DNA from: Macrostomum lignano
Taxonomy: Eukaryota
Direction: 5' to 3'
Assembly (NCBI GenBank): GCA_002269645.1
Contig: NIVC01002423.1
Coordinates: forward strand, 47,322 to 111,321
DNA: 64,000 nt
Position 1 is the first letter of the stretch; every line of letters begins with the position of its first letter. Below the pieces are notes generated by a model. That model ran no database searches and was not told where the DNA came from. It worked only from the letters and a program-made list of their open reading frames with translations. Of this stretch, positions 24,943-63,410 are shown in pieces. The position numbers and the translations under genes were made by a program.

Positions 24943-24984
24943 TTTATTTAAAAAAAGTATTTATTTCTGTATCATGTGGAATTA

Positions 24985-25840: not shown

Positions 25841-25864
25841 TTTTTAAAGAAGATTTTTAATAAA

Positions 25865-34826: not shown

Positions 34827-34926
34827 AGTAGTAGTATGTTATAAGGGGCTGCGCCACACTTGATTGCTCGGGCGCATTGCGCGCCAGCTCGCTGGATGAC
34901 TCAGCCCCTTATAACATACTACTACT
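34827..34926. other. 100-bp unit bounded by perfect 25-bp inverted repeats starting AGTAGTAGT
   Basis: AGTAGTAGTATGTTATAAGGGGCTG (34827-34851) and CAGCCCCTTATAACATACTACTACT (34902-34926). Confidence 0.85.
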
Positions 34927-35781: not shown

Positions 35782-36254
35782 TTATTCATCAATAGAAGCG
35801 CTTCCCATTTCGCTAGTGGCTGCTTCAATCGTGTCGTTCTCTTCTTCATCAAGCATGCTGTCATCCTCTCCTTCAAAGTGCAGTACGATGTCGAGTTCGA
35901 GGCGGCATGCGAAATTCTCATCTTCTGATGCTCTTTGTTCAATTGCCTTCTTGAACGTCAGAAGGGTCTCAAAGCAATATCCAGAAATTACCAGACTCGG
36001 GTACTTTGTTGTTAGCTTGTAGAATGTAAATAGTCGCTGGGCAAACTTCACATCTATATCTAGCTTTCTCGCAACTCCTTCAATGCTCAGTCCGAGTTTT
36101 TCTTGCAACGCAGCAATTACTTCTGCTTCTTCTTACTGGCAATACAACCCAGCACTTCAAGGTCGGCGATGAAACCCTCCAGTTGATTGAACCGTTGGAT
36201 CATGCGAGTCTCATCATCGCCAATGATAGATGTGCACACCTTTGCGTTGTAGAA
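35782..36254 (-). pseudogene. Exon 2 of an unknown spliced gene whose exon 1 lies at 43587-43296
   Basis: Removing the Chapaev and LINE insertions restores ...IKTR|FYNAKVCTS... across a 74-bp GTAAGT...TAG intron (39774-39701). One frameshift near 36130 leads to ...FTFYKLTTKYPSL... Confidence 0.7.
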
Positions 36255-39695: not shown

Positions 39696-39787
39696 AGAAC
39701 CTATAATGAAAATAGACTCAAGTTATGATATTTGCTTTTATTCAATGAAATTATGGAGAATGAAACTGAAACTTACCGAGTCTTGAT

Positions 39788-42700: not shown

Positions 42701-43292
42701 GCCGAGGTCTTGCCTTTGTAGGCGCGAGCAGGACAAGCCGCTACGTAGGCTGCAATAATGCAACCTGTCAGCGTCTCAGCCATATGATCCACATCCTCGC
42801 AGGTCTCAATCGGACGTAAGTCCGTGAGTTCCTGCAGGTGCAGATCAAGGGCAGCCTTGTAGGCCGCCCAATCAGTGTTGCGGATATTGCGCCTCCAAGT
42901 GATCGGAGACTGGGTTTTAGTGTCCGCGATGTTAAAGGCGATAAAGCAGTGGTCAGACCGGGAGGGCTCCTCAGACCAGACTCTCCACTCCTCAACTCTG
43001 TCAAAGAGTCTTGGGGTAACGAGTGTGGCGTCGAGGACCTCGGTCCATCTGCCATTATTAAAGGTAGGAGTGCTGCCGCGGTTGCAGAGCATGAGGTTTG
43101 TGTTAAAGATGAGGGCCAGAAGCTCCTCTCCTCTAGTGTTGGTATCTTTGCTGCCCCAGTGCTTGTGGTGCGCGTTAAGGTCGCCCCCTAAGCACAGCTC
43201 AGCGTTCTGGGACTCGCAGTACTGCGCGAGGCGCAGTAAACTCTCAGGAGCAGGGTCTCTGTCCCCTGGGATATAAACCGAGGCAACAAGAC
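39788..43292 (-). mobile_element. 5'-truncated I-group (Loa/Lian-like) LINE: partial APE, RT, RNase H, CCHC
   Basis: GDLNAHH and SDH (APE); PQGGVLTP and YADD (RT); YTDG...HVGIRGNELAD (RNase H). AAGTC-type tail. 13-bp TSD ACCGAGTCTTGAT at 39775-39787 and 43293-43305. Confidence 0.92.
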
Positions 43293-43743
43293 ACCGAGTC
43301 TTGATAGTTGTTACTTCGTTTGTCACTCCTCTCATTTTTTCGATAAGGCGTCCAATAAATCGGCTTTCTCTAATAGATTTAGAATCGCTCTCTTTGCTCT
43401 TCTCTTCCTTCTTATCCTTCTTGAAGGACTCACATTCAATCTTTCGCAGTTTTTCCAGTAATGAGTTCTGCTCCTCGCTAGACAAGCGACTAACTGCAAC
43501 TGCTGAACTTGATTGGTCTTTTGAGCTAATACTCTTAATCGTGGAAACTATCTTAGATGGAAGCTTTCTATCGCTGGAAGAAGCCATTTGAAATATGTTG
43601 TATAGATAGAATTCTAGACCTAAAGTAAATTTTCTCTTGCTCTTGCTTGCTAAGCTAAATAAAACTAATATAGCGATGGAGGGGAGGGTCGCAGTCAGCC
43701 GATAACAGGTTACAACTAGCAAAAGTGTGTGGGTGTGAGCCAT
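39880..43743 (-). CDS. Chimeric 1287-aa ORF: resident exon fused in frame to the LINE RT-RNase H
   Basis: Uninterrupted frame across the TSD junction EVTTIKTR|CLVASVY. ATGs at 43743 and 43587. Confidence 0.75.
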   Translation of the reverse strand: MAHTHTLLLVVTCYRLTATLPSIAILVLFSLASKSKRKFTLGLEFYLYNIFQMASSSDRKLPSKIVSTIKSISSKDQSSSAVAVSRLSSEEQNSLLEKLRKIECESFKKDKKEEKSKESDSKSIRESRFIGRLIEKMRGVTNEVTTIKTRCLVASVYIPGDRDPAPESLLRLAQYCESQNAELCLGGDLNAHHKHWGSKDTNTRGEELLALIFNTNLMLCNRGSTPTFNNGRWTEVLDATLVTPRLFDRVEEWRVWSEEPSRSDHCFIAFNIADTKTQSPITWRRNIRNTDWAAYKAALDLHLQELTDLRPIETCEDVDHMAETLTGCIIAAYVAACPARAYKGKTSAPWWNPELGKLRRKAKSLHRRAMKTGNPEDMELFRQASRNFKSEVRKAKECKWRQFCNELDQDRPTSRLVKALTMDKMSKLAMIKKDDGSLTKDPEEVLQHMLSTFFPRVPTARPEPNHSMDGATLAAGIVTEDLIARAVKTFKPFKSPGPDGIYPVLLREAAKIPSFLRLTRNLMRASIQLGYVPKCWTEAWVVFIPKPGKGDYQSVKAFRPISLTSAMLKLTERLILWRLLSCELTAMPLSNNQHAFHTGRSTDSALHAIVEKIERAVLGDGYALALFLDIVGAFDNVIFEAFQRALQNRKAHATLIRWIMYMISNRTVTAQLLGQTASTRVCKGGPQGGVLTPTLWNLVMDALLSDSRPDPVFKVGYADDVTAIVAGPSPSTLRDLMQSFIRKAESWANDNGLELSEPKTIAIMFTSRLRWNIRPLQLYGRDIAFAHQTRCLGVILDHRLNWSSHVKAKAKRASAILAQLRRALGTSWGLSPKRLWWIYTSVVRPAITYASVVWISATQVKSHADLLNTIQGRACRLICNATRSTPFAGMGAFLNIPPLDLFIRGEAARTTRRLIDAGVKFIYMRAPAKRNLVPHSDLCLNFLNECQANRVFTDGIASTLNLRQRYSVAIDSRDNINDQWNPGELHCYTDGFKQSANTGFGVGIFLNGRVIATHAQYTGVNSSVFQNEVLAISSCTAELLATGVTGKNIIFHSDSLAALHAISGCSTNSATVLDCIKLLNVLGSANKITLKWVSGHVGIRGNELADTLAKVGASGSSLGPEPLVPIPGCVIDSRIKAWIRTQQTWANRTNCRQSRGAVPQPSHQLRKLLLRLSRRDTRAATMTLSGHGCFSRHQYLQGNATNATCSFCNSGDETAEHFVSICPAFTRARLTYLGPHTSITEACKPENFNQLMRYLRATRRAELSFPESTIAAGDTGGPPWAAPTLRP

Positions 43744-44702
43744 GCGTTAAACTTGATATGTGTGTGAGTGTATTTGTTTCAACAAAGAATCTCTAACAAT
43801 TACTCACGCGTTCGTTGTGCGAGTTGAGATAGAGAGTATCTTTTAATAAACACACACAAATAACTAGCATAACGTTTGAGAGTTGGTGAGTGTGCCAGTC
43901 CTGCATCAGCCTATAAATTGTTGTGAAAGACAGCTAGCATGAGGGGTGCCCCTAGTGTCTTTTATGGGTTGAATAAGGGGGTTTGATGAAGATGAAAAAA
44001 CACTGAACTCCTGTGAGAGTCTCGGAGAGTGGCAGCGGAGTGTGGTGTGAGTCAGTCTCAATCTCTCAATCAGCGAAACCAGAATTCAAAAACCAGATTG
44101 TAACTGCTAATTTTTCTTAGAAAAATTGGAAGCTAATAACCCAAATGTTCGAAATGCTCTGCCACAAAAATACTATGATTCTATTGTAAGTTTCTCTCAA
44201 ATAAAACACCCACTCGAAAGGCTCGACTAATTGAAGAAATTGATAAAGCTTACGATGAATATAAAGTAGAAATATTAAAACACACCGATTGTAAATGCCC
44301 CCATAATTGTATTCATTCAGAGTATATCTTGCACATGTTGATAAATGGGCATTGATTTCGAGACAGCACATAAGGAATGATGAATTTTTCGTCATGCTGA
44401 AACTGAACATTTTTAAACTCCCCATAACCCGTGAGAAGTACATTGAAACCGATAAATTACAATATATTGTTAAATTTATTTTTAATAAAATGGAAAGAAA
44501 AAATCAGAATGATTCAAGTGTCTCTCCTGTGATCGTACAGGATCCGCTTCAAAACCATGATGCCCCACCACCAAGATTGACAAATTTAAAACAAACAAAA
44601 TCTTACGATTAACTAATTAATCTCTATAGAGAACTTAATTTTAGATTCGGAAGTTGCAGTATAACATGGAATAGTAAAACAAAGAAAAAAATACCGTCAG
44701 GA

Positions 44703-46020
44703 ATGCCAACCAAAGCAGATAGGAATTCAACCTCCCCACCATTTCGACCAGAGGCAGACAACATGATTTGGATAGATACGAAAATCTCAAATATAACCGT
44801 AATCGATATTGATAATGCTGACCTATGCCCTGAGTTGATTGAACTGTGTATGACTCATTGTGATTGGATTGTTCAGACAAACAAGGGTCATCACTTTTAC
44901 TTTAACAAGGTAGATGGATTAAAAGTAACGATTCAACAAAGTGTGGGTTTTGATATTCCGGCTTTAGTATTTGCTCCACCAGGTTTCTATTATGTGGATG
45001 GTGAAATGAAGGAATACAAACGTACAAAGTGCGAGGGACAGATGTAATTCTTGATGAGATAAATAGATTAATTAAGCCACAGGATAAAAAAGAAAACCAA
45101 GAACCCGATAAACAGGCACTAAAAAGCACCGTTCCACCCCCCACTTGTGAAGGAGCTTCAAAGTTGTTAAGTATAATACAACACAAAAACCAAGACTATG
45201 GTTCTTGGTACAAGGTAGCACTTATACTCCGCGACATAGACAGTGGTGATGAAATGTACAAAGTATTCACTAATTGGTCAAAAGCAAATTATAATAGGTT
45301 CGATTCCGAGGCATGTGAGAAGCTGTGGAATAGCACCAGTGCCAGCTCTGCTGATGCACAGGACAGACTTACTATCGGTACACTAAAGAAATGGGCAAGT
45401 GAAGAAAACTATAACAAATATAAGGAATGGAAAAGCAAATATGATTATTATGGTAGAATTGAGTATCTTGATGATAATTTCACTGACGTTAACATAACCA
45501 ACTTTGTTTATGAATATAAGAAAAATAATATAATTTACAATAGCGATGGTATTTACTATTTTGATGATGATGAGTGGAGAGAACTAAGTAGTATAAATGA
45601 CATATTTCTTAAAATATCAGACCTTGTTAGCAGTGAGTTAAACCACCGAAAGACTAGACTCGAAATTGCAATTGAGAAGGCGGCTGATGATAAAGAGAAG
45701 TTAAAAGCACTTGAAAAGAAACTACAGAGTACAATGAAGAATATAAATTCAATACAAGGAGCCAACAAGCTCAAACAGGTAACTACTTTGTTCAAAGAGA
45801 GGTTTACTAACAATGAAATTGAATTCGATATGAAATGGAATTTGCTAGGGTTTAACGATGGAGTAAATGATCTCGCTACAGGTGAGTTTCGCGAGTATAG
45901 ATACGACGATTACGTTACTAAATCGGTGGAATATAATTACTCGGATGTACTTGGAGTGAGTGATTACGACTATAGCTTCATTGTTAATCTGCATAACCAA
46001 ATTCATCCCGATCCAGAAAA
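44703..46020 (+). pseudogene. Viral primase-helicase 5' part: PrimPol (bifunctional primase-polymerase), PriCT-2 and D5_N
   Basis: ITVIDID, VQTNKGHHFYF and GFDI..LVFAPPG; DYGSWYKV...WSK...C.KLW...LTIGTLKKWA; LLGFNDGV.DLATGEFR...DDYVTKS. Frameshift near 45030. Confidence 0.82.
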
Positions 46021-46673
46021 CAAGTGTCTATCTGTTTGGGATTCTGTTTGGGATAAGAAGGGCCCTAATAGGGGAAAATAATATTCGGGAAATGCGTTTG
46101 TTTATCGTTTCCAATGCCAACCGTTTCCGTGGATTTAACAGTAGCAGAATTGGGGATGAACTGGTCGCTGTATTTTCAATATTTTTCTTTTCGCGAATTT
46201 TGCTACTCTCTTCTTTAAATACTCATTTGACGTACGAAAATCTTGATGCGTAGTAAATTATACAATTTACTACGTTTATTTTTTGCTACCCTTCTTTTGA
46301 CGATGTCTTTTACGTATGAAAATCTTGTTGCGTAGCAAAATTATGCAATTTACTACGTTTATTTTTTGCTACCCTTCTTTTGACGATGTCTTTTACGTAT
46401 GAATGTTTTTATGCGTAGTTAAATTCAATATTTTGCTACCCTCTACCTTACGTCCCTGCTTGACGTAGGATGATTTCAAAACGTTGTGAAATTCTACAAT
46501 TTACGATGCTCGAATTTACTACACAAGTCTAATCTACATATCTTGTTGAAGTGCTGAAATTCGATGTGCAGTACTTTCTTAATGTTGCAATCGCAGAACT
46601 TTCTTAAAAAAAGCATCAGGAAGCAGTAGACACGAGAGTCAAGTTGGAATTTTATGTATTTTTTATTCACACT

Positions 46674-47560
46674 AGCTAAATTCAATGCGCTGCTTACGAT
46701 GCAGACCTTTTCGGCGTCTGAATTTGTGTGTAGACCAAAAATGAATTTCCTACCTAAGAATTGGGTACACTGGGTGTGTATTTATTTCAGATACATAGTA
46801 AAATCATTTTACTACCATACACGTTGCTACACAAGATGTGTACGAAATTCTGAAGCGTAGCAAAATATCCTATTTCGTCCCTGAGACCTCAGGGAAGTAC
46901 TTTAAGCGGGGCCAGTCGAAGCAGCGCCTGCTGGGCTGATATCCAGTCGATTGAGCTAGTCGCCGGGCAATTTTAATTTTCTTGAATTCACAGACTTTGC
47001 CAAAATTCGAGTTTGACTTGCAGATCCGCGTCAGTTTTTCACAACTGCACATTGGCCGCCAGGCAGTCGGGGTGGGTAACTTATTTCCATAGGAAATTAG
47101 TCACAATAGCTAAATTCAATGCGCTGATTACGATGGAGACCTTTTCGGCGCCTGAAGAGTTTTTAGGCCAAAATTGAATTTCCTAGCTAAGAGTTGGGTA
47201 CACTGGGTGTGTATTTATTTCACATACGTAGCAAAATCATTTTACTACCCATAGAGTTTGCTACATAAGATGTGTATGAAATTCGGAAGGTACCAAAATA
47301 CTCTTCTTCGTCCGTGAGACCTCTGGGAAGTACTTTGACCGGCGCCACTCAAAGTAGAGCCTGCTGGACTGATATCCAGTCGATTGAGTTAGTCGCCGGG
47401 TAATTTTAATTTTCTTGAATTCACAGACTTCGCCAAAATCTGAGTTCGACTTACCAATCCGCGTCAGTTTTTCGCAACTGCACATTGGCCGCCAAGCAGT
47501 CGGGGTGGGTAACTTATTTCCATAGGAAATTATTCCCAGTAGCTAAATTCAATGCGTAGT
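46674..47560. repeat. About 434-bp repeat unit, two tandem copies (left block)
   Basis: Units start AGCTAAATTCAATGCG at 46674, 47108 and 47541, with internal hairpins such as CCCTGAG-AC-CTCAGGG. Confidence 0.9.
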
Positions 47561-48057
47561 GAAGTTCAATATTTTGCAACGTTTGAATTTTGGTACTGAC
47601 TAATTTACATATGTTGTGGACGTGTGGAAATTTCAATGCGTAGTGAAATTCGACATTTTGCGACGTTCAAATTTCGGTACTGTGTAATTTACATATCTTG
47701 TGGACGTGTGGAAATTTCAATGCGTAGTGAAATTCTACAGTTTAGCATGCTCGAATTTACTACACAATTCAAATTTACATATCTTGTTGACGTGCTGAAA
47801 TTCGATGTGCCATACTTTTTTACTGTTCGAATCTCAGAAGTTTCTTAAAAATAGACTGTCACGAAGCAGTAGACACGAGGGTCAAGTTCGATTTACCGGT
47901 TCGTAGTTTTTTCTTTCCATTCTTTTCTTTGAGAACGAAAAGTTGCTGGAATTCTTTTTCTAATGTATTTTTTTCTTTTAAAACAGAAATTAGAACAAAA
48001 CTTGTCACGCAGAGTTGCCCAGAGTGGAGAACTTGTAAGCAAATTAGAAAAATAAAA

Positions 48058-49406
48058 TTAAATCTTTGATGTCGAACTGTCCGAGTCACTGGGGTAAACT
48101 TTTCCGCCCCGAAGCACTCTTCTTACATGCTCTCCTTCTTCCATTACTGAGTTGCTTTTGTTTTCTTTTCCCTTCATGGTGCGAAACTCGCGCCTCCTTT
48201 TTTCCGTTACTTGTGGCACCGAGTCAGAACCAGACCTCTTGCGTATCGTGATCCCCCTAGCAGCGCTTTCTGAAGCGGAGGCGTCGGAGGTGCCGGCAGC
48301 AGAGGCGCCAGCGGAGGCGCCAGCGGAGGCGCCAGCGGAGGTGCGGGCAGCAGAGGCGCCAGCGGAGGCGCCAGCGGAGGCGCCAGCGGAGGCGCCAGCG
48401 GAGGTGCGGGCAGCAGAGGCGCCAGCGGAAGCGCCAGCAGAGGCGCCAGCAGGGGCGCCAGCGGCGATGTCGGCGGGCGTTTTACTGGCACCGGAAGCGG
48501 CGGTGTCCGTAGCAGCCGTGTTACCGCGCCTTGTAGCAGCCCTCGTATTCATTGAGCCTGCTGCTGCTGCTGCTGCTGCTGAGGCAGCGGCGGCACCGGA
48601 AGCGGTGGTTGTTGCAGCAGTGTCGGCGCATAAAGCCGACTCGGCAGCCTGTGTGTAGTGATTGTGGGGGTATATTACAAGTTGAATTTAGGAATATCGT
48701 AAAATGTTTCTATCTTGCAGGGTTCTAATTTTAAAGGATATTGAATTTTGGTACACTATAATTTACATACGTTGCGGACGTGTGGAAATTTCAATACGTA
48801 GTTAAATTTAATATCTTGCGAAATTCGAGTTTCAGTCTCTTACATCGATAGCGCTCTTAGAAGGCACGGCCGGTGTCTCCGCAGTACGACCTCCCGGCGA
48901 AGACGGCGCACCAGAATCGGAAGCGGCGGCGCCCCTAGCAGCCGTCTTGCCGCGCCTTTTATTGGCCTTCGGAATAGTTGAGGCTGCTGCTGCTGCTGCT
49001 GCTGCTGGGGCAGTGCCGGCACCCGAAGCGGTGGTTGTTGCAGCAGTGTCGGCGCATAAAGCCGACTCGGCAGCCTGTGTGTAGTGATTGTGGGGGTATA
49101 TTACAAGTTGAATTTAGGAATATCGTAAAATGTTTCTATCTTGCAGGGTTCTAATTTTAAAGGGTATTGAATTTTGGTACACTATAATTTACATACGTTG
49201 CGGACGTGTGGAAATGTCAATACGTAGTTAAATTTAATATCTTGCGAAATTCGAGTTTCAGTCTCTTACATCGATAGCGCTCTTAGAAGGCACGGCCGGT
49301 GTCTCCGCAGTACGACCTCCCGGGGAAGACGGCGCACCGGAATCGGAAGCGGCGGCGCCCCTAGCAGCCGTCTTGCCGCGCCTTTTATTGGCCTTCGGAA
49401 TAGTTG

Positions 49407-49440
<34 letters not shown>

Positions 49441-52400
49441 GGCAGTGCCGGCACCCGAAGCGGTGGTTGTTGCAGCAGTGTCGGCGCATAAAGCCGACTC
49501 GGCAGCCTGTGTGTAGTGATTGTGGGGGTATATTACAAGTTGAATTTAGGAATATCGTAAAATGTTTCTATCTTGCAGGGTTCTAATTTTAAAGGATATT
49601 GAATTTTGGTACACTATAATTTACATACGTTGCGGACGTGTGGAAATGTCAATACGTAGTTAAATTTAATATCTTGCGAAATTCAAGTTTCAGTCTCTTA
49701 CATCGATAGCGCTCTTAGAAGGCACGGCCGGTGTCTCCGCAGTACGACCTCCCGGCGAAGACGGCGCACCAGAATCGGAAGCGGCGGCGCCCCTAGCAGC
49801 CGTCTTGCCGCGCCTTTTATTGGCCTTCGGAATAGTTGAGGCTGCTGCTGCTGCTGCTGCTGCTGGGGCAGTGCCGGCACCCGAAGCGGTGGTTGTTGCA
49901 GCAGTGTCGGCGCATAAAGCCGACTCGGCAGCCTGTGTGTAGTGATTGTGGGGGTATATTACAAGTTGAATTTAGGAATATCGTAAAATGTTTCTATCTT
50001 GCAGGGTTCTAATTTTAAAGGATATTGAATTTTGGTACACTATAATTTACATACGTTGCGGACGTGTGGAAATGTCAATACGTAGTTAAATTTAATATCT
50101 TGCGAAATTCAAGTTTTAGTCTCTTACATCGATAGCGCTCTTAGAAGGCACGGCCGGTGTCTCCGCAGTACGACCTCCCGGCGAAGACGGCGCACCAGAA
50201 TCGGAAGCGGCGGCGCCCCTAGCAGCCGTCTTGCCGCGCCTTTTATTGGCCTTCGGAATAGTTGAGGCTGCTGCTGCTGCTGCTGCTGCTGGGGCAGTGC
50301 CGGCACCCGAAGCGGTGGTTGTTGCAGCAGTGTCGGCGCATAAAGCCGACTCGGCAGCCTGTGTGTAGTGATTGTGGGGGTATATTACTACGTTGTGAAC
50401 GTGTGGAAATTTGAATACCTAGTGAAATTCAGTATTTTGCGAATTTCGAATTTTAGTCTCTTACCTCGATGGCGCTCTTAGAGCGCACGACAGTTGTCTC
50501 CGGCTCGGCAGCAACTGGGACAGACGATGCAGGCAGCAGCGGTGGCAGCATGCTTTGGCTTTGTCGACGCATCCATTTGTCTTGTCATTGGTCTTTGGAC
50601 CACGCTGTTCTCCGATTCCTCTCCTAGATTGGGCGGAGCGCTTTTACGTCGGCTGAGACCGTTCAACCTGTGGATCAACAGACCTAAGTTTAACTCCCGG
50701 TCAAACACCATTTCGGTGTAAATCGCGTCTCGCTCCGTGATGCCGCCGAAGTTGATCCGCTGCATGCCATAGGTCCGGTGGTCCTTTCCAGCGTTGATAT
50801 AATCAAATAAGCAGCTCTGAAGTTCCTTGATGTTTCCATTCTGGCGGATAGCAAAATTAAAAAGAACCGCCAATAGGTCACATTTATCTAGGCTGTTCAG
50901 GGCGCCAGCCAGAATGGCCAGGTCATCTCGGCCGTTCTGGGTGCTGCTGTCAAACGAGGCATTCAGAGCGGCCAGGGAATCAGCGCCCTGGTCGGCATCC
51001 GGCGCCGTCATGAGCCTGGTGAGGAGGAGCCAGTCCGAGGGCAATGCGGCATCCGCAAAACTAGCCGGTGCCACCACCGGAACACCGAAACTGGCTAGTG
51101 CTGGGAGCTGCCGGTGGACGCTGACGAAAGGCGGCAACGACGAATCCATCTGTGAAAGAGAATGGTAGTTGGTTTTCAAATAAAAAATTTCAAATGAAGT
51201 ATTTGAGAAGTTCGATTAAGTTTATAGTCAAAAGTAAATTTGCAACGTACATGTAACGAACCTACTTCACGGTTAAAGTTAGATTATGTAGTAAAATACT
51301 GTAACTTGTACGTGTCGATTTTAATACTCTTGAATTTACAGCCTATTGGACGTGTTAAACTGTAGGTGAATATTAAATTAACGGAATTTACAGCATTTGG
51401 ATTTCCATACTCTCTGTTTTCACTATGTATATAACGTGTGGAATATTGCTGTAAAATAATAGATTTGGTTAAGGAACCTTCAGCAGTTTTTGGTTTGCCA
51501 CACATAATACGCATTGAATTTTGCCGTAAATGAACAACTAAATATTACAGTAAAAATTACCCCTTCAAGTGGGGCCGCGACGCCAGCCGCGATGGACGCC
51601 AATGGCGACTCCTCATCCGACGACCTGCGTTTGGCAGGGGCTGATCCTGCAGCTGCTGCCGCCGCCTTGGGCTTCTTTAGCGGTTGGAACTGTACCGTTT
51701 TCTGTGGAAATATTATGAGTGACTTAATATATATTTCTTATATATTAAAAAATGCATTAAAAAAAGCACGAAATTTTTAACTTCACTCTTTACTCACAGG
51801 CAACTGCGCTTCTGGAGACGAGTCCGTGCCGTCATCCGCCGACTGCTTCTTCTTGCGCGGCACCGGCGTTTCTGGCAGCTGGTCGACGGGCGGTGCCAGG
51901 CGACTGGGCTTCGCCTTGTTGTAGTGTTGGAACTGGCGCTTGATGAGCGCAGCCGTGGACTCCGCTAGCTCGACGACGGCTGTTTTACCGATCCGCTCCA
52001 GCTCCACCTTCTCTTCCTCGGTTATCGGCTGATACCAAGCGTCCTTTGGCGGAGCGGTCTCGCCTTTCCAAATGCTGCCATTTGCCAAGCAGTGTCTTTT
52101 GACGTTATTGGTTCGAAAACACGGACAGAGGTTCTGAGCATCGGCTCTCACGGCGCCTAGCTCGACCCACTGGGCGAATAGCCCATTGGGACACGTCAGA
52201 GACGGGGCCTCTTGGAAGGTCAGCCGAACCTTTCGAAGCATGGGGCCTTTATGGATCAAAGCCACTTTGGAATCTACCTTACGAGGCCTGTACTTCTTCC
52301 TTCGGCCTGCAGGCCCGTCAACGGGTTCTACGGCAACGCCTTCTTCAGCATCATCTTCGTCGGCAGCTTCCTCGTTGGCAGAGTCTTCGTCCAACTCAAC

Positions 52401-52569
52401 CTCAGAGTTTTCACCTTCAATGTCTTCTTCGAAGTCAACCTCCTGCTGGACTCTATCTTCATTTGACGGCCGATAATCTTTGTCATCCTCGTCGGACACT
52501 TCCTCTGCATCGGATGATTCGTCTACGTCAACGCCGGACTTTTTCTTCATGCGAGAGTTGAGCCGTTGG
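48058..52569 (-). CDS. Spliced gene of unknown function, 5' end not found, with a tandem exon array
   Basis: Exons 52569-51798, 51701-51561, 51149-50465 (one +1 frameshift near 50520), four copies of a 231/237-bp exon, and 48648-48058. GT-AG boundaries are all phase 0. Confidence 0.7.
48648..50390. repeat. 426/432-bp tandem repeat, about 4 near-identical copies (exon plus intron unit)
   Basis: Acceptors at 50358, 49932, 49506, 49074 and 48648. Units differ mainly in GCA triplet number. Confidence 0.95.
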
Positions 52570-52789
52570 CTGTAAAATATAATAGGGTTTACATTCTAAA
52601 TTTAATACGCACGCAGTGTACCAAATTTTTAGGTAGCAAAATCTGAAGCAATCAACTGCATTCTGCAATAGTTAAGAGAAAGTTATGTGCGGCAAGGAAT
52701 GTAAAATAATTAAATATTGCAATCAATCTACATTTGAAAACTCATTTCGAATATACATTCGGCCTTCTGATAGGCTTATTAAATTAATA

Positions 52790-53730
52790 AATATATATTG
52801 CGACTCTTGAATTTTGGGCACCAATGGCAGATGGTTAAAGTTTCACAATCTCATACAATATCAAATTAGTATTTCTATATGCTCATCAAGTTGTAATTTT
52901 AATATGGTTAGAGTGTCTGGAATTTCAATTTTTATATACTGATATCCTCAAACATAAGTGAGTTGCAAATTTGCTAAAGCTCTACGTATTTTAATATATA
53001 TATATATATTTGCACTCCTAAATATTCCTAAATTTTAGCCACTGCTGACAGTTGGTTGAAGTTCTATATTGTCATACAATATCACAAATATCATACAAAT
53101 TGTAATTTTAATATGCTTAGAGTGTCTCGAATTTAAATTTTCATATACTGATATCCTCAAATATAAGTGAGTTGGCAAATTTGCTAAGTCTAAGGCTCTA
53201 CCTATTTTAATATATATATAAAAATTTGCACTCCTAAATTTTAGCCACTACTGACAGTTGGTTAAAGTGCTATTTTGTCATACAAAATCACAAATATCAT
53301 ACAAATTCTAATTTTAATATGCTTAACGTGTATGGAATTTAAATTTTCATATACTGATATCCTCAAATATAACTGAGTTGCCAAATTTGCTAAGCCTAAG
53401 GCTCTACCTATTTTAATATATATATATATATATATTTGCACTCCTAAATTTTAGCCACTACTGACAGTTGGTTGAAGTGCTATATTGTCATACAAAATCA
53501 CAAATATCATACAAATTCTAATTTTAATATGCTTAGAGTGTATGGAATTTAAATTTTCATATACTGATATCCTCAAATATAAGTGAGTTGGCAAATTTGC
53601 TAAAGCTCTACCTATTTTAATATATATTTGCACTCCTAAATTTTAGCCACTGCTGACAGTTGGTTCAAGTGCTATATATCATACAATATCACAAATATCA
53701 TACAAATTGTAATTTGAATTTGCCTAGAGT
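52790..53730. repeat. About 200-bp tandem repeat, about 5 copies, each with a variable (TA)n tract
   Basis: GCACTCCTAAATTTTAGCCACTGCTGACAGTTGG...ATCATACAAAT...GATATCCTCAAATATAAGTGAGTT repeated. Confidence 0.9.
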
Positions 53731-54029
53731 GTATAGAATTTAAATTTACATATGCTGACATTCCCAAATATCAATATTCACAAAATTGTGAAATATTTAG
53801 GAGAAATAGTCAACAGAGGTCACGCACTAACGAATTGGTTCAACAAAGCGAAAAATCTCGCAACTACAAATTAAACGCATAACATTTAAAGAAATAATCT
53901 CTACAATTTTTAGCACCCTGTTTAATGGATGCAAAATGAAGAACGGCATCGAAAAATTATAGTTTCAAATATTCTGATGTTGAAATACTTAAAAAGCCAT
54001 AATTCATATAACGACGGTATTGCGTATTA

Positions 54030-54960
54030 AATTTTAGATACGTAGTAAAACATTTTACTACCCAAAGACTTTGCTGCGTAACTTGTGTACGAAATTCTGA
54101 AGCGTAGCAAAATATCTTATTTCGTCCCTGAGACCTCAGGGAAGTACTTTGAACGGAGCCAGTCGAAGCAGCGCCTGCTGGAGTGATGTCCAGTCGATTG
54201 AACTAGTCGCCACTTAATTTTAATTTTCTTGAATTCACAGACCTCGCCAAAATCTGAGCTCGACTTCCAAAATCGGCATCAGTTTTCACAACTGCGGATT
54301 GGCCGCCAAGCACTCGGGGTGGGTAACTTTTTTCCCTAGGAAATACTTCACAGTAGCTAAATTCAATGCGTAGATTACAGCAGAGAGCTTTTCGGCGTCT
54401 GAAATCGTTCGTAGGCCAAAATTGAATTTAGTACCTAAGAATTTGGTACGCTGCGTGGCTATTCATTTTAGATACGTAGTAAAATTCATTTTACTACCCA
54501 AAGACTTTGCTGCGTAACTTGTGTACGAAATTCTGAAGCGTAGCAAAATATCTTATTTCGTCCCTGAGACCTCAGGGAAGTACTTTGACCGGCGCCAGTC
54601 AAAGTAGCGCCTGCTGGACTGATATCCAGTCGATTGAGCTAGTCGCCGGGTAATTTTAATTTTCTTGAATTCACAGACTTCGCCAAAATCTGAGTTCGAC
54701 TTAGCAATCCGCGTCAGTTTTTCACAACTGCACATTGGCCGCCAAGCAGTCGGGGTGGGTAACTTATTTCCATAGGAAATTATTCACACTAGCTAAATTC
54801 AATGCGCTGATTACGATGGAGACCTTTCCGGCGTCTCAAATTGTTTGTAGGCCAAAAAGAAATTACTACCTAAGAATTGGGTACACTGGGTGTGTATTTA
54901 TTTCAGATACGTAGTAAAATCATTTTACTACCCATAGACTTTGCTACGTAATAGGTGTAT
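54030..54960. repeat. About 434-bp repeat unit, right block (partial, full, partial); a further partial copy at about 56985-57110
   Basis: Same sequence and orientation as 46674-47560; unit starts at 54355 and 54791. Confidence 0.9.
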
Positions 54961-55041
54961 GAAATTCGGAAGGTAGAAAAATATTTGTGTGAAACTCTGC
55001 AACGTAGAATAATTTTTACTACTCATCTGCAAATTTCTCAG

Positions 55042-56937
55042 ACCTGTCGCAACATCCAGCTGCTCCAATACTTTGGGGAGGGCCCGACGGCCCGACGCTG
55101 TCAAGATTTGGAGCTGCTCCCGTGCGACCATTGCAGTCCAACGCAGCCTACCGGCAGTCCGCGTCCGCGCGTGTTTGATTTCGCGCCCTTGGCCAAGGCC
55201 GTCCTTCTGATGCTGCGCAACGAGGCCGAGGCTCCATTGCATGCGCAATTAACTGCCTTCCTTGTCGGCGAGAATAATGCCATCAACAGACGGCTTGGCC
55301 GCAACACCGGAATGCTCTTCGGCTGTATGAAAGGGTTCAGCAAGGGGACCACCACCGAGTTCCTGCTTGTCCTCAGCATTAACTCTTGCACGCTTGAGTC
55401 GTGCCGCTACAGCCAAGAGCATGGCCGGCACGAGACGAGCATATCTCCTGGCCCATGCTTCCCGACGGATCTCCGGTTTCGGACCGTCGTAAGTGATCAA
55501 AAATGTCTCTTTATATTGATGTGCGTATAATTTACAATCTCTAGCAAATACCCAACTCCTACTGAAACATTCCTGAAGGAGTCTGACGCCGTCGCCTATG
55601 ACACCGCATTGTCTATGGCCGAATCATTCATGGCGTCCTTTCTGGCTTTCCCGGAAAGCGTCGACCCGGAGCCCCACTCGCAGGCTGTCGAAGGCGAAGC
55701 GGAGCGGGCAGAACAGCAAGTCCGGCCTGACACCGAGCGGCATGTGGCGCCTGTTGCGACCAGGGCGGGCAGGTGGCACTGGACGCAACACCGACAGTTC
55801 CAAAGCTTGAAGAAAAAATTTGGCCTACAGTATGGTGAGTGGAAAAGAATTTTGAAAACAATATGCACTTAAATTTGTTCTTAAATTAGCAACGCGTATG
55901 AAGTGCTAAATTTTTACTGCGTGCTAATTTATCCGAATTTGCAACGTATCAATTTCCAAGTACGTATTAAAACCGGAAGGCAGTATACAGAGAACGTATG
56001 TGAAGTAACTATTTTCCTACTCAATAAAATTTACAACTTTACGTACGTATTAACTTTACAGAGTGTAGTGAAATAACTTTTTAATACCCATACCTTACTC
56101 CCGATATTCGTACCCTTTATATTGGCCCGGCATTGTACGTATTAAACTTTTGCCTTCAAGATGTGAAACAGGTTGCTAAGTTTAAGAGTATGCTGTTTTA
56201 TGATTGTAGTAACTAATGAGAATTTAAACTAAAAGGTTGTTCCCCACTACAACTTTAAAGCCCGCCAGAGAATGCACCGTCGAAGGGCGACTATCACGGG
56301 TGCTATACGGTCGGCGTTCCGCGCAAACGCGCGCAAAACCGCTGCTCCTGCCCCTGCTGACGGTGCCTTAGCTTCCGTGTCGTCTCAGCTACAGATGACA
56401 CTGCCCAGCACATCTGGGTCGGGATCGGTGGCCTCGGCGGCCGAAGCCTCGGCGCCCGATGCCTCGGCGGCGGAAGCCTCGGCGCCCGATGCCTCGGCGC
56501 CCCCGCCTCTATCAGAATCTGCGGACGCCTTTCCAGCTACTCCGGTGATGTCCACACCCAATGGTAAGTTATATTTTTTGCATCACGACCTACATAATAA
56601 TGTTTGCTTTTACGCATTTGGGATTTCTTGAAATTAACAAGTTACTTACATCTAAACCTCGTCCAGGTGGCACTTCGCTGTTTGCACAGCGCACTTGCTG
56701 TAAACACCGCCTCTGTGGTGCAACGCTACCCTGCTTGTACAAGCTGCCAAGACCTGTTGTGCGCCATAAGTTGCCACGCTACTGCGTCTGTGACCGAACC
56801 GATTCGGAGCGGCGCCGACTGTGCAACGAAGGGCATAACTCTTGGCGGCGGGGCCTCCCTAGTTGCGACCCAATCGGGGTCCATGTTTGGACGGATGATA
56901 TGAAAGCGGCAGCACGGCTACTTTATGGATCATTATA
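55042..56937 (+). pseudogene. 5'-truncated spliced RecQ-like helicase fragment (Zn-binding plus RQC) with a novel Cys-rich tail
   Basis: Exon 55042-55488 reads TCRNIQLLQYFGE...C...CDHC...FDFAPLAKAVLLML...LTAFLVG...LFGCMK. Further GT-AG exons at about 55550-55832, about 56260-56565 and 56669-56937. Confidence 0.65.
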
Positions 56938-57489
56938 AGACACGCTTGAAGTACTTTTTGTGTGCACACAGTTGTGCGCTGATTACGTGGAGACCTTTTC
57001 GGCGTCTCAAATTGTTTGTAGGCCAAAAAGAAATTACTACCTAAGAATTGGGTACACTGGGTGTGTATTTATTTCAGATACGTAGTAAAATCATTTTACT
57101 ACCCATAGACTTGGCACTCGGCCAAGTATTTCAGGTACGTAGTAAAATGATTAGTGAAATAGAAACAAAGTAGATCCTATAATTACCACTTTTAGCCTAG
57201 GATGGTTTAGTTGCCCTGGAAACGACAGATTTACTAATATAAATGAATATTCTCCATCACAGAAAACGAAAACTTTGAAAATTGGAAAAAACGTTTCTGC
57301 AAAATTGGGGTGGAGGTGGGGTGGTGGTATTTCCAAGAAATTTGCAGGGAGTGGGGTGGGGGTGAAAGTGGGTCTATATATACAGAGGGGGGTTAGCTGG
57401 GCCCGACTGTTGGGTGGGAAAGGATAACCGAAAGCGGTTTCTAAAAAAATTCACACCTAGCAAAAAACGACACTTAAAGTAAGATAGAT

Positions 57490-58386
57490 ATATATAGCTC
57501 TAATGGGTAAGAATGTTGAAAACTTTATAATGTTTGATGGCGCCGGTGGAAATGGCAAGGGGGTTGAGGACAACCTACTTCTTAGAACTCTAGGATCTGA
57601 TTATGCAGCACCACTGAGTCCTGATGTTTTGAATTCACCAATAAGAATAGACAGGCCAAAACCAGCCCTAGCACAAATTAATAAAAAGAGGTTGGTTATC
57701 AGTCAAGAAGTAAGTGGTGTCTTGAACAATGCATCAATAAAATTACTAACTGGTGGAGGAGTTATTCAAGCTAGAACTTTATATTCAAGCAAGTGTAATG
57801 TTGTTTTACACGCAACCCTAATAGTCGAATGTAATAACAAGCCTGACTTTAGACAAAATATTGGAGATGCAGAAAAAAGACGAATTATAAATATTAATTA
57901 CTTATGTAAATATACAACAGATACCGACATCATTGATCATGAGAAACACATTTATAAAGCAGATTCATATCTTAAAACCGAGGAGTTTAAGAATAAATAT
58001 AAGTTTGCTGAGATGAAACACCTAGTAGAAATTATCAAGCAAACAGGGGGTGAAATATATCTATCTCAAAATGTTATTGAAAACACTAAGGAATTCATAC
58101 AGAATAGCAATTGGTTTGCTCACTTCTTTGAAGAGAATTATGAATTTTTAGAAACTGAGGAAAAAACATTTATGCTTGTTAGAGAAATTACACTGCCGCA
58201 ACAGAGAGTAGATACTATAGGACTCTAGCCCAGCGCGAGAAACGTGAATTCCAACAACAATACATAACAGATTTCTTTAAGAATCACAATGACTATTGTA
58301 AGTATTATAAGGATAGATATAGGCGTAGGATAGATGGTAAACAGCAAGAAACTAGAAATGTTCTGTTTTACTGTGTGAAAAAATAA
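57490..58386 (+). pseudogene. Viral primase-helicase 3' part: D5-like SF3 helicase and C-terminal domain
   Basis: FDGAGGNGKG (Walker A), KKRLVISQE (Walker B), IKLLTGGG.IQARTLY, LIVECNNKP (motif C) and RRI. Frameshift near 58195, stop at 58384-58386. Confidence 0.88.
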
Positions 58387-58398
58387 ACGAAGATGTTA

Positions 58399-59525
58399 TC
58401 AATGCGATTGAATTGGCTGATGAGGGATGGATCTTCTAGGATCCAAATAATATCTTTTATCATCTAAAGGACTCTTTGTTTGTTTCATAATATCACGAAT
58501 ATATATATTATTTTTTTCAGATACAGTCATGCTTACTCTACCTCTTTGAATATCTTTGTAATCTGTCAATAGTATGTTTTTAAATTTTCAAACTTTATAT
58601 TTGTACTGCTTTTATCAACTCCCTTGATCTTAACACGCTCCCCTGAAACTGTAGTCAAAGCATACTCCTTTGACCGCAGGAATACAGCTTCGGAAATTAT
58701 TGAGCCATTCATTGTATCTTTCAACTTTCCAATGACTTTCTTGTTCGTCTCGGAGTATAGTGGATGCTCTGTTGGATAATCCGATGTGTCTAAGTGTTCT
58801 TTAATTTTTTCAAGATCCTCATAAACATCCTGAGTAATCACTGAGAATATCAGAGAATCACAATCAGAATAGTGCAACTGACAGCTGTTCCAATTCTTCT
58901 CAATAACATTGTAATAGCAATCGTACATTAGCATTTTTGCATAATCCAGAATAGCCATTCCTAAATAAATTGGCTTGTCACACGCAATTGTCTTTTTGTA
59001 CATTTGGATACCAACCGCATCCTCACTAAACATAATGAAATCTTTGAAATTTGGTTTAGAAAAATAACGCCTTGCAGTTTTTTCTTCAGCTACAAGATGA
59101 AAGTTCGACCTATTCTTTACATTTTCGATTGTTTTACCGTAGAATGAGTTGTTTAGTAGTTTCCACAGGTCTTTCTCAAATTTAGTTTTTGCTTCCATTC
59201 TCCGCCTGGTATTAAATTCGATGTATTTACTCAACCAGTTTGATTCTTTGAATGAAATAATTCTATGAACTCTCCTAACTCGCATGCCCATCTTCTCATA
59301 AAACTCAAATAGTCTGTGATGTAAAACATATTTCTCCTTGTTGTAAAATGTCAACATCAACTTTGACTGGACAAACTTTTTCTTTTCGACTTCGAGGTAT
59401 TGCTTCTGTATGTTAGATTAATCCTCAAATCTAGTTGTTCGTTTCTCAGGAGCCAGTAAATATTTACTTGTAGCTTTCTTACACTCCTCTGTATATTCAA
59501 GGTCAACTTCAAGGAATCGTACTGA
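58399..59525 (-). pseudogene. Protein-primed family B DNA polymerase (Polinton/Maverick pPolB), 3' half
   Basis: FLEVDLEY...LAPE, KYVLH, EKDLWKLLNNSFYGKTIEN, KPIYLGMAILD, YSDCDS, KKVIGKLKD, LRSKEY, KIKGV, and after a frameshift LDDKRY. Confidence 0.92.
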
Positions 59526-59529
59526 CATT

Positions 59530-62500
59530 ATGATGAAGAGCAGCGGTGAGAGGACACCACCCTGAGGAACGCCTGCAGCGGGCTTGAACCCTTTGCTGAT
59601 CGCCCCCCCCCCAGCCTGGATGGAGATTTCCCTATCTTCTAGGTAGCTGGACAACGTCCTGATCATGTTGTGTGGCAGGTCACTCTCCAGGGAACGATAC
59701 CTGAGGTAGCTGTGCCAGACACCGTCGAAGGCACCTTTGACGTCAAAGAAGACTCCTAGTGACACATGTCTCCATTGCTTTATTTTTAGTATATCGTCTG
59801 TGAGTCGCACAATGTTGTCAAACGTACAGTGATCTTGTCTGTACGCACATTGGTCTTCATTTATAATACCCTTGTTTTCTAAGATAATTCTAAGATTCCT
59901 AGCAATAATCTTTTCATAAAGTTTACCCAAGCAGGAGGTTAAGCTGATTGGTCTGTAGTTGTTGATTTCGTGCCTTGATTTCTTAGGTTTAGGAATCATT
60001 TGGATGGTTGCCCGCTTCCAGGCCTTGGGAAAATAGCCCAGAAGAAAGCTTGAATTGAAAATTTTTGCGATAAATCTAACAGAGTCCGGACTAAGCCCCC
60101 GTTTGAGGACAATATTTGGGATCTGGTCAGGGCCAGGGGCTCCTCCAGATCTCAGATTTCTAGTTTCCATGAGGACATCAATATCTAGGATGTTGAGGAT
60201 GTCAGATTCTATATCTTCCTTGTCAAGATCTTCAAGGTCAGCCCTATCTCTGTGGTAGGTCAGAGCTCTGACCGTGCAGTCATGGGGCCGGAAATTCTCA
60301 TGATTTTCCTTTGAAATGACCTTTTTGTAGAGAAAGGAATTGGTGTCCGGGTGAGGCTGCATTTGGTCCTCGAGGAAGTTTTGAAACAAATTTGCAGTTT
60401 CTTGCTCAGTTTCAGCAGTCACCCCTTTGTAGCTAATGGTAGGGAAAGAGACTGGTTTAATGGATTGTCCGGTCATTTTCTTGATGTCAATCCAAAATTG
60501 ACGCGGTTCTTTCCTATAGCTAGTTTTAGCAATTTTCTGACATAAATTCTCAAATTTTCTATACCTATGCATTCTAATAGCATTTCTAATTTCTTTAGCA
60601 GCTTGATTTGCCTGTACTCTAAAAGCGTCAATTCTGGTTTTTTAAAAAGTTTTCGAAGCTTTCTTCTGTTCTTGATTTTTTCTTCGATGTCTGGAGGTAG
60701 TTGTTCCCTCGAGTCTCTATCTGGGACCACCTCTTCAATTGTTTCATGTATTTTTTCCGTAAGCTTGTCAACCGCGTTGTCTAGATCCTTGGGTGTAGAG
60801 ATTCGGGAACAAATCATGCTACAGTTTTCTAGCTTATCTTGAAGAGTATACTTAAATGTCTCCCAATCAGTATGCCAAAAACTCTTAGGAGGCCTGGGTT
60901 TAACTTTGGAACTGGGGTCAATATAGACCCTAATGATAATAGGTAGGTGGTCACTGTCGAGGTCGTCGCCCACAAGGACATAACTGACAGAGTTAATAAA
61001 GTCAGGAGAACAAATTCCTAGATCTAGGACATTACCAATCGTGTTGCCCCCTCTATTATAAATCCTGGTGCATTCACCAAAGGAATTAAGGATAAAAGGG
61101 GGTTCGGGTGATTGTCGAGCCATTCATACAGCTGTTTGCCCGGGTAGTTATCTACACTATCTCCACCTAGCATAGCGTGTCTACAGTTGAGATCACCAAT
61201 AATTAAGGATCTGGGTTGAGAGAGCAGCTGCTCAAGCAAAGCAATGCTGATGTTGTCAGGGTTGGGGGCTCTGTAGAGAAGGGAGATCTTAAGGTGCTAC
61301 ATGGATTATTATTGGGAGTGACATCGAGGCTGACAAGCTCATGGTGAGAATTGTCATAATATTTATAAGCATTTGAGATTTTTAGAGTATTTTTGTAGAC
61401 GATAGCCAGTCCCCTTCTACAGTCAGGAGTGTCATACCTGATAATGGCATATCCTTGAACGTAAAACTTGTTATAGTTTTTAAGATCAGTTTCTGAGAAT
61501 AGACCAATGTCAATATCATCACTGTGCAACCACATGATAATCTCATGCATTTTATTGCTTAGTTTGTTACAGTTCAGGTGTCCTATATTAAGAGCACTAT
61601 TGGGAGATTTGTTATCGAAAGCCATAACGTAGTAATAAATTTTACTTCAGGGCTCAGATCTGCCTCCGCTCACCGAAGTGGCTTTGGCTTCACCTGCCCT
61701 GACAGCGGGCACTCTTCCCGGATTCATGAAGGTCGTCAGGACCTCCGTCACTACCCGAATAGCAAGCTGGCTTGCTTCCCAGGCAGTGAGCAGACGTCCC
61801 GGCTCGATATCCATGATCCAGTTGAGTGCCCCGAGAACTACCTCGAGCACGTCCCCCTGAGTGAAGCCCCTCTCACCGTTTCCAGCAGAAGTGGCGGCAT
61901 TATCAGAGTTAGTTGGATCAGCCTTGCTTGGATTGATCGTGGAAGCTGAGGTATCAAGCGGCGCTGTTGGTTGGGCGCAGCGGCAGCAGCAGCAGCAGTT
62001 GGCAATGCTGATTGGACAGAAGCGGCAGCAACAGCTGTAGGCGGCACTGCTGATTGGACGGCGGCAGCGGCGGCAGCGGCTTTGGACGCTTTGTTCTCAT
62101 ACGCGATTGGTCCTAGAGTTGGCGCCTTATTGACAGCCTCCGCATATGATGTGGGGCCAGGCATGCCAAAAGTCTGTCTCAACTAATGTCTGGGTATGTT
62201 CTACTTTTCTAGACTGTTCTAGTTTTAATTTTAGAGTTTGAACCCTGTGGTGCTCTCTCTCAGTTGCCCTCTCATTAGCGTGCTGTACCGCTGGGCATTT
62301 GTAGGAGAAGGCCGGGTGTTCACCTCCACAATTCGCACACTTGAAACCCGTGTCCTTCGGGCAGTCACCGGAATAGTGCGCCCCGGCACATTTGTTGCAA
62401 ACGAAGCCGGCGTTGCACCTGCTTTCAGTGTGCCCGAGGCCTTGGCACCTTTGGCACTGGATCTCCTTAACCGGTGGAAGATTGTGCGATTCTTCGCACC

Positions 62501-63410
62501 GGAATTTTAGCGCCCCAGCCTAATGCCGTTCTCCAGGCAGGTGTCATACGTAGCCCTAGATTTCGTGAACATTCTAATTAGCTGTGTCGGTTGGCCTGAG
62601 GCCTTAGAAATAATGCGTGCCGCACCATCAAATTGTAGATGTGCTTGGTTCTCGTCTAGGTATTGAAGCAGTTCCTCAGCTTCCACGGCTAGAGGAACGC
62701 CTTTGACGATGAAGGAACGGACCTGCGGCGACTTGAGAGGCTTTCGCAGCCGATCATCACCTTGGTGCAGTGGCCTATTCGACGGCAGGCGCCTAGTGAC
62801 AGAGTGCCCGTTTATTTCAGTGACTTTTAATGTAGATGTTAGTAAGCTGTTCATGTCGCTTGGTGAGTTAGTGAATACATAGTATCCAGAGCTATGGTAC
62901 AGCTCTTTTACCGACACGATGCGAGTGTTCGGAAAGTTGGCTTTTAAAAAACTTTCAAATTTAATTGGATTTTTGGCCTCAACAGGCATTTCAAATACTA
63001 CAGGCGAGATTTTGGTTAATTGTTAATGGTTAATAATGGTTAATAATTAATAATGGTTAATTAACCAAATGGTTAATTTGGTTAAGTATCTAATTTTGCA
63101 GTTGCTAAGTGGATAGCTAGTTTTGTTATCAGTGAGATCTGGACTTGGTAGACTAAATTGCATTCTTGTCGTTTTCCCTGTGTCTGCTAATTCACTACTC
63201 ATTACAGGCTGGTTTTCACCGACGTTGACCACCTGAGGTTCTTCGGTCACTGTTTGCACACAAGTCGTCGCATTACTGGGAGCCACAGGTCAGGACCTTT
63301 GGTCTGGACCGGAAGAAGACCGGTTGTTAGCCTTTTTGTTGCAGACCGGAGGTGAATCGGTGTCCCTTGACGCGCTTCTTTTGCTGTTGGCTTCTACTTC
63401 CATTGAAATT
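59530..63410 (-). mobile_element. Decayed Jockey/I-group LINE: ORF1, then ORF2 APE-RT, 3'-truncated
   Basis: ORF1 remnants 63404-61640. APE motifs HLNC, FSET, GDLNCRH and SDHLP. RT motifs APGPD, NYRPISLTSCLGK, FFDVKGAFD and GVPQGGVLSPLLF. Several frameshifts; no YADD. Confidence 0.88.

Follow-up and report, generated by a model that had tools for sequence, protein, structure and literature searches.

Why should an element that encodes a protein-primed DNA polymerase, a type of enzyme held to need neither helicase nor primase (PMC4889955), also carry a primase-helicase gene? The question is raised by a broken Maverick/Polinton element in a stretch of Macrostomum lignano DNA of 64,000 nucleotides, the final 64 kb of contig C2423 (hereafter the window, to whose full length all positions refer). 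A preliminary description of this sequence had joined two helicase fragments into a single gene of the kind known from nucleocytoplasmic large DNA viruses, set tail-to-tail with a protein-primed family B polymerase gene (PolB), and had suggested a hybrid mode of replication or gene capture from a large DNA virus. As a rule, a small eukaryotic DNA virus has just one of these two systems of replication.

The primase-helicase and its partner polymerase

Copies were sought in the organism's own assembly (764 Mb), where a search with the primase-helicase gave 85 matches among 100 candidates scored. In four sister copies (C2232, C412, C2696 and C4665) the gene is a single open frame of 837-841 codons from stop to stop, and a contig from an independent sequencing run joins position 46020 directly to 57496, the form without the insert that splits the gene in the window; the two fragments are thus the halves of one gene, as had been proposed. 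PolB lies tail-to-tail with this gene in 24 of the 27 copies fetched, two of the others stopping at a contig end and one being truncated, and the assignment of both genes to one viral genome stands on this linkage. Intact copies keep the PrimPol domain with its motifs complete. Chance juxtaposition or an assembly artefact, also considered, is ruled out by the linked copies and by junctions found in independent sequencing runs. The gap of 12 bp between the convergent stops (58384-58386 and 58399-58401) had been correctly read in the window, but it is a minority variant, present in 4 of the 19 measurable copies (the window and its near-identical twin on C2967 included), whereas 15 of the 19 have 21 bp.

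The C2232 protein, 822 residues from its Met, matches the same four Pfam families as the window pieces, where PriCT_2 scores E 1.5e-11, D5_N 7.4e-12, Prim-Pol 0.001 and DUF5906 1.2e-4, the last two being under the curated cut-off; the motifs lie where the preliminary description had put them (primase DxD at 44805-44813, KGHH at 44883-44894, HPDPE at 46004-46018, YIALMGKN at 57491-57514 and Walker A at 57539-57562). Over its whole chain the AlphaFold model (mean pLDDT 80.9) matches the African swine fever virus (ASFV) PrimPol and poxvirus E5/D5 (vaccinia D5: Z 31.4, root-mean-square deviation (rmsd) 6.9, 412 residues aligned) and, among predicted structures, proteins of giant viruses, virophages, phages and mavirus. 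Residues 37-205 match the primase-polymerase domain of pRN1 ORF904 (Z 10.7, rmsd 3.7, 158 aligned), which is also the top hit (Z 9.1) of a second, poor model (mean pLDDT 47) used for the primase domain alone. With DxD, H and D motifs on this modelled Prim-Pol fold, the N-terminal part is predicted to be an archaeo-eukaryotic primase (AEP); D5_N, Walker A and B, motif C, an arginine finger and the modelled D5 fold likewise point to a D5-like superfamily 3 (SF3) helicase. The primase DxD and His are invariant in all 24 covering copies, and the third Asp in 23 of 23.

The paired PolB has 1021 residues and was aligned with exonuclease-intact sister polymerases of the same genome, the names for its motifs and terminal-protein region following PMC11071308 and PMC10748475. 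It has kept the N-terminal region, the vOTU Cys/His, an endonuclease VII insert, Exo II and motifs A, B and C, and it has lost the first Exo I Asp, replaced by Ile, together with a segment of some 70-75 residues that carries the KGxxPY motif and Exo III. The Ile is found in 20 of 20 covering copies and the short junction in 18 of 18 covering contigs; judged from these alignments, the exonuclease loss is fixed in the family. The segment measures 33 residues; the sisters have 108 and 121, and of 106 outside homologues (what remained of the best 120 of 467 matches once 14 short or partial ones were set aside) 105 have 101-146, the single exception being a gene model without the whole region, and the Exo I and Exo III aspartates are each kept in 104 of the 106. 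One listed homologue, P0165, which comes from a snake annotation, has lost the vOTU Cys and the exonuclease acids and has kept the length of the segment. The aspartates of the polymerase motifs are all invariant across the Macrostomum copies. In view of motifs A, B and C, the vOTU Cys/His and a homologue that matches Pfam DNA_pol_B_2 (PF03175), PolB is classed as a putative protein-primed-type family B polymerase.

Selection was gauged by transition-corrected ratios of nonsynonymous to synonymous change on variants common to at least two copies. For the primase-helicase these are 0.33 in the primase core (p 0.007; range 0.24-0.33, p 0.002-0.007), 1.16 in the linker (neutral), 0.61 in PriCT-2 (p 0.21), 0.38 in D5_N and 0.15 in SF3, and for PolB 0.21 in the palm (p 1e-11) and 0.22 between vOTU and palm, beside 0.16 for the capsid protein and 0.11 for the integrase; all p values are indicative, the copies being non-independent and the shared variants including duplicated loci of the assembly. 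The core boundary (residues 40-172) was picked after changes were seen to cluster at 174-201, and the wider 39-205 gives 0.52 (p 0.027). By these ratios the primase core, the helicase and the PolB palm are all under purifying selection.

A FastTree phylogeny of 122 palm sequences, none of them from mavirus, places the paired PolB as sister to the polymerase of a second Polinton family of this genome (0.98), inside a clade of the genome's own polymerases (0.94). Because it nests among exonuclease-intact polymerases, the loss is derived, and because these are animal Polinton polymerases it is independent of that in mavirus. The pairing itself is older than the family, since two diverged relics, C2974 and C538, keep primase motifs (whole or in part) and a convergent polymerase of the same type. 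In C2974 the primase-helicase is 37-54% identical across three stretches, the primase domain being the best kept (54%) and the PriCT-2 and D5_N stretches reaching 37-40%.

Helicase-free elements and known relatives

The same genome supplies a control of its own. A third configuration of the element combines the same capsid gene (99-100% identical in amino acids; 0.003-0.049 away from the C2232 copy in synonymous distance) with another terminal repeat, of 902 bp, and an exonuclease-intact PolB of 1275 residues, without any helicase; it is complete on C2071 and partly visible on C3459 (two copies), C176 and C25. The second family, more numerous and with a capsid protein about 26% identical, also has an exonuclease-intact PolB, and neither of its two copies read contains a helicase. 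When the SF3 domain served as query, with all 70 candidates scored, no element of the third configuration or the second family was hit, whereas all 25 contigs listed with the paired polymerase type have a helicase match. The integrase is common to the polymerase types, and the terminal repeats vary with the polymerase. There are thus two natural polymerases on one genome and capsid background, one intact and alone, the other exonuclease-less and paired. The helicase-bearing elements also have, at one of their ends, an Eco47II-like restriction endonuclease gene (L024:1314-2024), which the helicase-free type on the same capsid lacks.

The coexistence of PolB and a D5-like primase-helicase in one element is not in itself new: some polintoviruses encode such genes (Koonin et al. 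2015, PMC4405056), and the multi-replicase polisuviruses also combine PolB with AEP-SF3 (10.64898/2026.10.13.758929). In the passages concerned these are given as gene lists or recent acquisitions, with no fixed, selected pairing with exonuclease loss. Among the closest known systems are mavirus, the low-GC endogenous mavirus-like elements (EMALEs) and pMVRE group 1, which share a PolB short of most of its exonuclease, a separate SF3 helicase gene, an rve integrase and terminal repeats (PMC11071308, PMC8547959, PMC13215967), and the mavirus helicase is among the structural matches of our model. The Macrostomum family differs from mavirus in its Polinton-type capsid, its animal host, a partial exonuclease deletion and a conserved primase domain on the helicase; its capsid protein matches PF21738 and no Sputnik family, although the same library found those elsewhere, so that it does not group with the mavirus-type virophages. 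By description, and not by alignment to reference viruses, it comes near the "Beta" class of adintoviruses of Starrett et al. (PMC8502044), with which it shares terminal repeats, 6-bp duplications, an rve integrase, a double-jelly-roll capsid, an A32 ATPase, a PLA2-like domain and an OTU-PolB unmatched by PF03175; unlike that class it has the extra primase-helicase, an exonuclease-less PolB, the PLA2-like domain within the integrase frame and the Eco47II-like nuclease gene.

On the side of the primase-helicase, domain order and modelled folds are those of the AEP-SF3 replicases of polinton-like viruses (PLVs) and of virophages, of the ASFV C962R PrimPol and of poxvirus D5/E5, and the primase domain fits pRN1 ORF904 best. 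In small viruses AEP-SF3 normally replaces the protein-primed PolB, and in giant viruses it serves a primer-dependent one (10.64898/2026.06.19.733378, PMC10120064). Nematode Polintons with swapped pPolB1/pPolB2 likewise have capsid modules that are nearly identical but carry different polymerases in a single genome; there both polymerases keep all exonuclease motifs, and the paper has 0 occurrences of helicase or primase (PMC10748475). In the literature searched, no animal Polinton is reported to combine a primase-helicase with an exonuclease-less polymerase, no independent animal case with a full primase and a control in its own genome was found, and this family does not appear (Repbase, subscription journals, figures and supplements lay outside the search and may list it); for Macrostomum lignano and polinton it gave one unrelated paper. 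What is new is the replication-module variant with its unusual natural control, the kind of element itself being known.

What the pairing may do

On balance, and without great assurance, we favour the reading that the SF3 helicase unwinds DNA for a PolB poor at strand displacement, the primase helping by priming the displaced strand or restarting stalled synthesis. In phi29 a tunnel built from the exonuclease domain, TPR2, palm and fingers splits the duplex, and a helicase is unnecessary (PMC4974454, PMC4889955). By analogy, damage to the exonuclease would weaken strand displacement, and an SF3 ring would unwind ahead of the polymerase; exonuclease loss is reported to accompany helicase gain in mavirus and Tlr1-like elements (PMC11071308). 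Initiation would still be protein-primed at the terminal repeats, which fits the retention of the vOTU residues, the terminal repeats that track the polymerase type and the integrase common to the types. Being kept by selection, the primase is presumably active and useful and would likely prime the displaced strand or restart synthesis, its exact job being the least certain step. Copies integrate with 6-bp duplications and later decay. The hybrid mode of replication suggested earlier is thus plausible, and it gains support from the exonuclease loss, which could not be seen in the window, where the polymerase remnant covers only about residues 653-1021 and the exonuclease region falls outside it.

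A number of observations weigh against this reading. Concerning the polymerase, Cys stands in motif C of all 21 copies counted (and of a relic) where each of the 106 homologues has Thr, a change without explanation; TPR2 is of normal length, so that displacement may persist; PF03175 does not match the paired PolB directly, only a 41% identical homologue; and the terminal-protein and vOTU regions are borderline, at 0.45 (p 0.07 and 0.095 at two carriers). The terminal-protein region is a putative one. As to the other partner, residues 39-205, the primase region, tolerate more change than the helicase does (Fisher p 0.003-0.02), the constraint on PriCT-2 is not significant, and the nearest helicase relative, P0255/P0391, starts at PriCT-2 without a primase domain, so that the primase may be dispensable. 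The enzyme activities of primase, helicase and PolB are predicted ones, and the non-independence of the copies, mentioned above, touches every ratio. Moreover, the correlation of helicase and exonuclease comes down to one loss event, the many copies being one data point; the relics C2974 and C538 do not reach the exonuclease region and are silent on the order of helicase gain and exonuclease loss; and Krupovic et al. take the link between exonuclease and helicase as an effect on fidelity rather than on displacement.

A bolder form of the favoured reading, about which we are rather doubtful, is a true fork: it would start from the terminal protein, the element would supply both the ring helicase and the primase for the second strand, the polymerase would be without proofreading, and pure strand displacement would have been abandoned. 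If true, the family would offer, in a small virus, a living model of the passage from protein-primed Polintons to primase-dependent giant viruses, while the ancestral mode persists in this animal genome on a shared capsid.

That the primase region is less tightly constrained than SF3, and that the nearest relative has no primase domain, would both be expected if only the helicase mattered, the primase having hitchhiked and being slowly lost in a mavirus-like state in the making; the mavirus helicase is indeed described without any other recognisable domain (PMC3671162). Nevertheless, this seems unlikely to us, given the purifying selection on the primase core, the invariance of its catalytic residues and the relic C2974, in which the primase domain is better kept than PriCT-2 and D5_N.

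Equally to be considered is a replicase turnover caught midway, in which a mobile primase-helicase entered beside the terminal repeat and now copies the genome alone, PolB either decaying, exonuclease first, or being kept just for its terminal protein (ends, packaging, integration). Barth et al. describe multi-replicase genomes and propose such a path (10.64898/2026.10.13.758929; PMC11296320), the primase domain has in the models the fold of the pRN1 primase-polymerase, and the block that holds the gene, which in type A copies is beside the terminal repeat, inverts and swaps on one capsid. Furthermore, no protein-primed PolB was found, by a group profile and motif patterns, beside related primase-helicases in 203 loci (2 + 78 + 43 viral, 80 metagenomic), a weak test in that 3 kb were available on both sides in just 54 of the first 160 loci and the collections hold few animal elements; Pfam, applied to 59 of the 217 and 62 of the 98 large open reading frames (ORFs) of those loci, gave one ordinary PolB (L275). 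What makes a turnover improbable is the strong purifying selection on the palm and on the stretch between vOTU and palm, the invariance of all PolB motif aspartates, and the fact that the helicase never occurs without the polymerase in the family save at contig ends and truncations, a pairing that survives even in far-diverged relics.

Finally, the two changes could be unrelated, the exonuclease being lost through a mutator benefit or drift and the primase-helicase having a separate job, either in-place amplification of an integrated copy (which, by reasoning alone, has neither free ends nor terminal protein and would profit from an internal start) or uncoating, the label that PDB gives to poxvirus D5; a single event would allow this, but it is very improbable when loss and gain are reported to go together in independent lineages too (PMC11071308, PMC13215967) and when sister elements lacking the gene still integrate into this genome and multiply.

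The proposed rule that exonuclease loss goes with helicase gain has so far rested on ancient lineages, and here is an independent case beside its own control, so that both the rule and its reason (unwinding or fidelity) are directly testable with purified natural proteins. It is also a case for the role of a primase beside a protein-primed polymerase, a matter central to models of giant-virus origin (PMC4405056).

With respect to origin, the primase-helicase may have been captured from a large DNA virus: in architecture it resembles ASFV PrimPol and poxvirus D5/E5, but the primase is of pRN1 type, and related genes occur on virophage contigs and PLV-sized contigs as well as in giant-virus bins. 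The nearest relatives are P0226 (38% identical over the alignment, with a primase), P0238 and P0255; in a FastTree phylogeny of the helicase with 182 sequences, few of them of known origin, the supports beyond a four-member clade are 0.66 and 0.0. Scans of viral contigs with the polymerases and with P0226 found nothing.

The family and the broken copy in the window

The element is a member of the Maverick/Polinton group, having terminal repeats, 6-bp duplications, an rve integrase, a capsid protein, an A32 ATPase and PolB. A complete copy is about 18 kb long and ends in terminal repeats of some 585 bp; exact target-site duplications of 6 bp flank all three complete type A/B copies checked (C2232, C2696 and C4788). 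Such copies encode an Eco47II-like nuclease, a PLA2-like/rve integrase frame (PF00665, E 7.5e-11), a double-jelly-roll capsid protein (PF21738, E 2.1e-13), an A32-like ATPase (PF04665, E 6.9e-6), PolB with its endonuclease VII domain and the primase-helicase, the E values being those of sister copies, and in addition a fibre-like protein with F5/8-C domains and a probable penton and protease. The last two are ORFs that fit in size and place, without a Pfam or PHROG match; the supposed adenain-like protease shows by eye His, Asp and Gln-Cys motifs, a pattern that we take to be that of a protease. The capsid protein is identical on nine contigs (the query counted), which shows that the family was recently active, and the median synonymous distance between copies is 0.04-0.10. 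Sequencing runs that are only guessed to be RNA cover both replication genes, coverage for which copy number alone could account.

The replication block (small ORF, primase-helicase, PolB and an ORF of 256 residues) is bordered by the element's termini and the capsid module and is found in either orientation, next to the left repeat in 9 copies (counting the window but not its twin) and inverted in 16, with one copy unassigned; the junction of the inverted block is present in independent sequencing runs. The small ORF near the block differs between the orientation types (about 40% identical, C2232 against C2696), and some inverted-type copies have a RING-finger ORF there. On C543 (406302-414140) a further divergent Polinton, with polymerase 35-38% and capsid 19% identical, abuts a truncated copy of the primase-helicase family, possibly a site of module exchange.

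In the window only the left terminal repeat is kept and the integrase is gone. The features of the copy are as follows (LINE, long interspersed nuclear element).

34827-35419, plus strand: left terminal inverted repeat of ~590 bp with AGT repeats at its start, 93-95% identical to both termini of complete copies
35420-36069, plus strand: left arm of the element, resuming beyond a 7.8-kb nested insertion (34827-36069 and 43837-44572 are contiguous in C2232)
36070-43836, no strand: nested foreign insertion in the left arm (transposon 36255-39695 and LINE 39880-43746)
44102-44489, plus strand: start of the invertible replication block, a small ORF upstream of the primase-helicase, ~118 codons in a sister copy, no Pfam family
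44490-46022, plus strand: 5' half of the primase-helicase, with predicted Prim-Pol (AEP; DxD, H and D motifs), PriCT-2 and D5_N; stop at 44610-44612, frameshift near 45040
46023-57495, no strand: insert in the helicase gene, an 11.5-kb low-copy repeat element foreign to the Polinton; sister copies are without it
57496-58386, plus strand: 3' half of the primase-helicase, with predicted SF3 (Walker A, Walker B, motif C, arginine finger) and a C-terminal winged-helix-like domain; frameshift near 58190
58399-59516, minus strand: C-terminal third of the Polinton PolB, with motif B at 59133-59162 and motif C (Cys for Thr) at 58854-58871; stop at 59418-59420, frameshift near 58580
59517-63022, minus strand: LINE fragment abutting the polymerase remnant (gag-like zinc knuckle ORF, endonuclease, part of the reverse transcriptase); the remaining Polinton is lost

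The range first given for the gene pair, 44703-59525, needs correction at both ends. The primase-helicase gene starts at 44490, 44703 being an inner Met after the stop at 44610-44612, and the left terminal repeat lies outside the range; at the other end the polymerase gives way at about 59517 to the LINE reverse-transcriptase fragment. Past this joint the twin contig C2967 runs for 28 kb without element genes. The stops at 44610-44612 and 59418-59420, the three frameshifts and the loss of some ten helicase codons at the insertion site of the 11.5-kb element leave a dead copy that cannot work.

This insert contains tandem units of 433, 426 and 206 bp, its right junction is bridged by contigs from two independent sequencing runs, and no convincing family was found for its ORFs. 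Related pieces lie on C538 (~49600-51500), where a diverged copy of this primase-helicase gene encloses them, and on C471 (~76100-80200), with no Polinton gene in 19 kb; two of the three main loci are thus within a primase-helicase gene, and a target preference is possible.

The surroundings are animal DNA, with an intron-split formin gene (its FH2 exon matches, at 100% identity, a protein that its source labels as Macrostomum lignano) and with LINEs and DNA transposons. The LINE nested in the left arm has the order endonuclease-reverse transcriptase-RNase H, and its neighbour, the transposon at 36255-39695, has inverted arms of 231 bp and a 718-codon ORF without a Pfam family. Further upstream are a broken piggyBac-like transposase (30681-32287; DDE_Tnp_1_7) and, at 24574-26272, the relic of another, more distant Polinton, in which a small element gene is matched at 29% and a PLA2-like domain is present.

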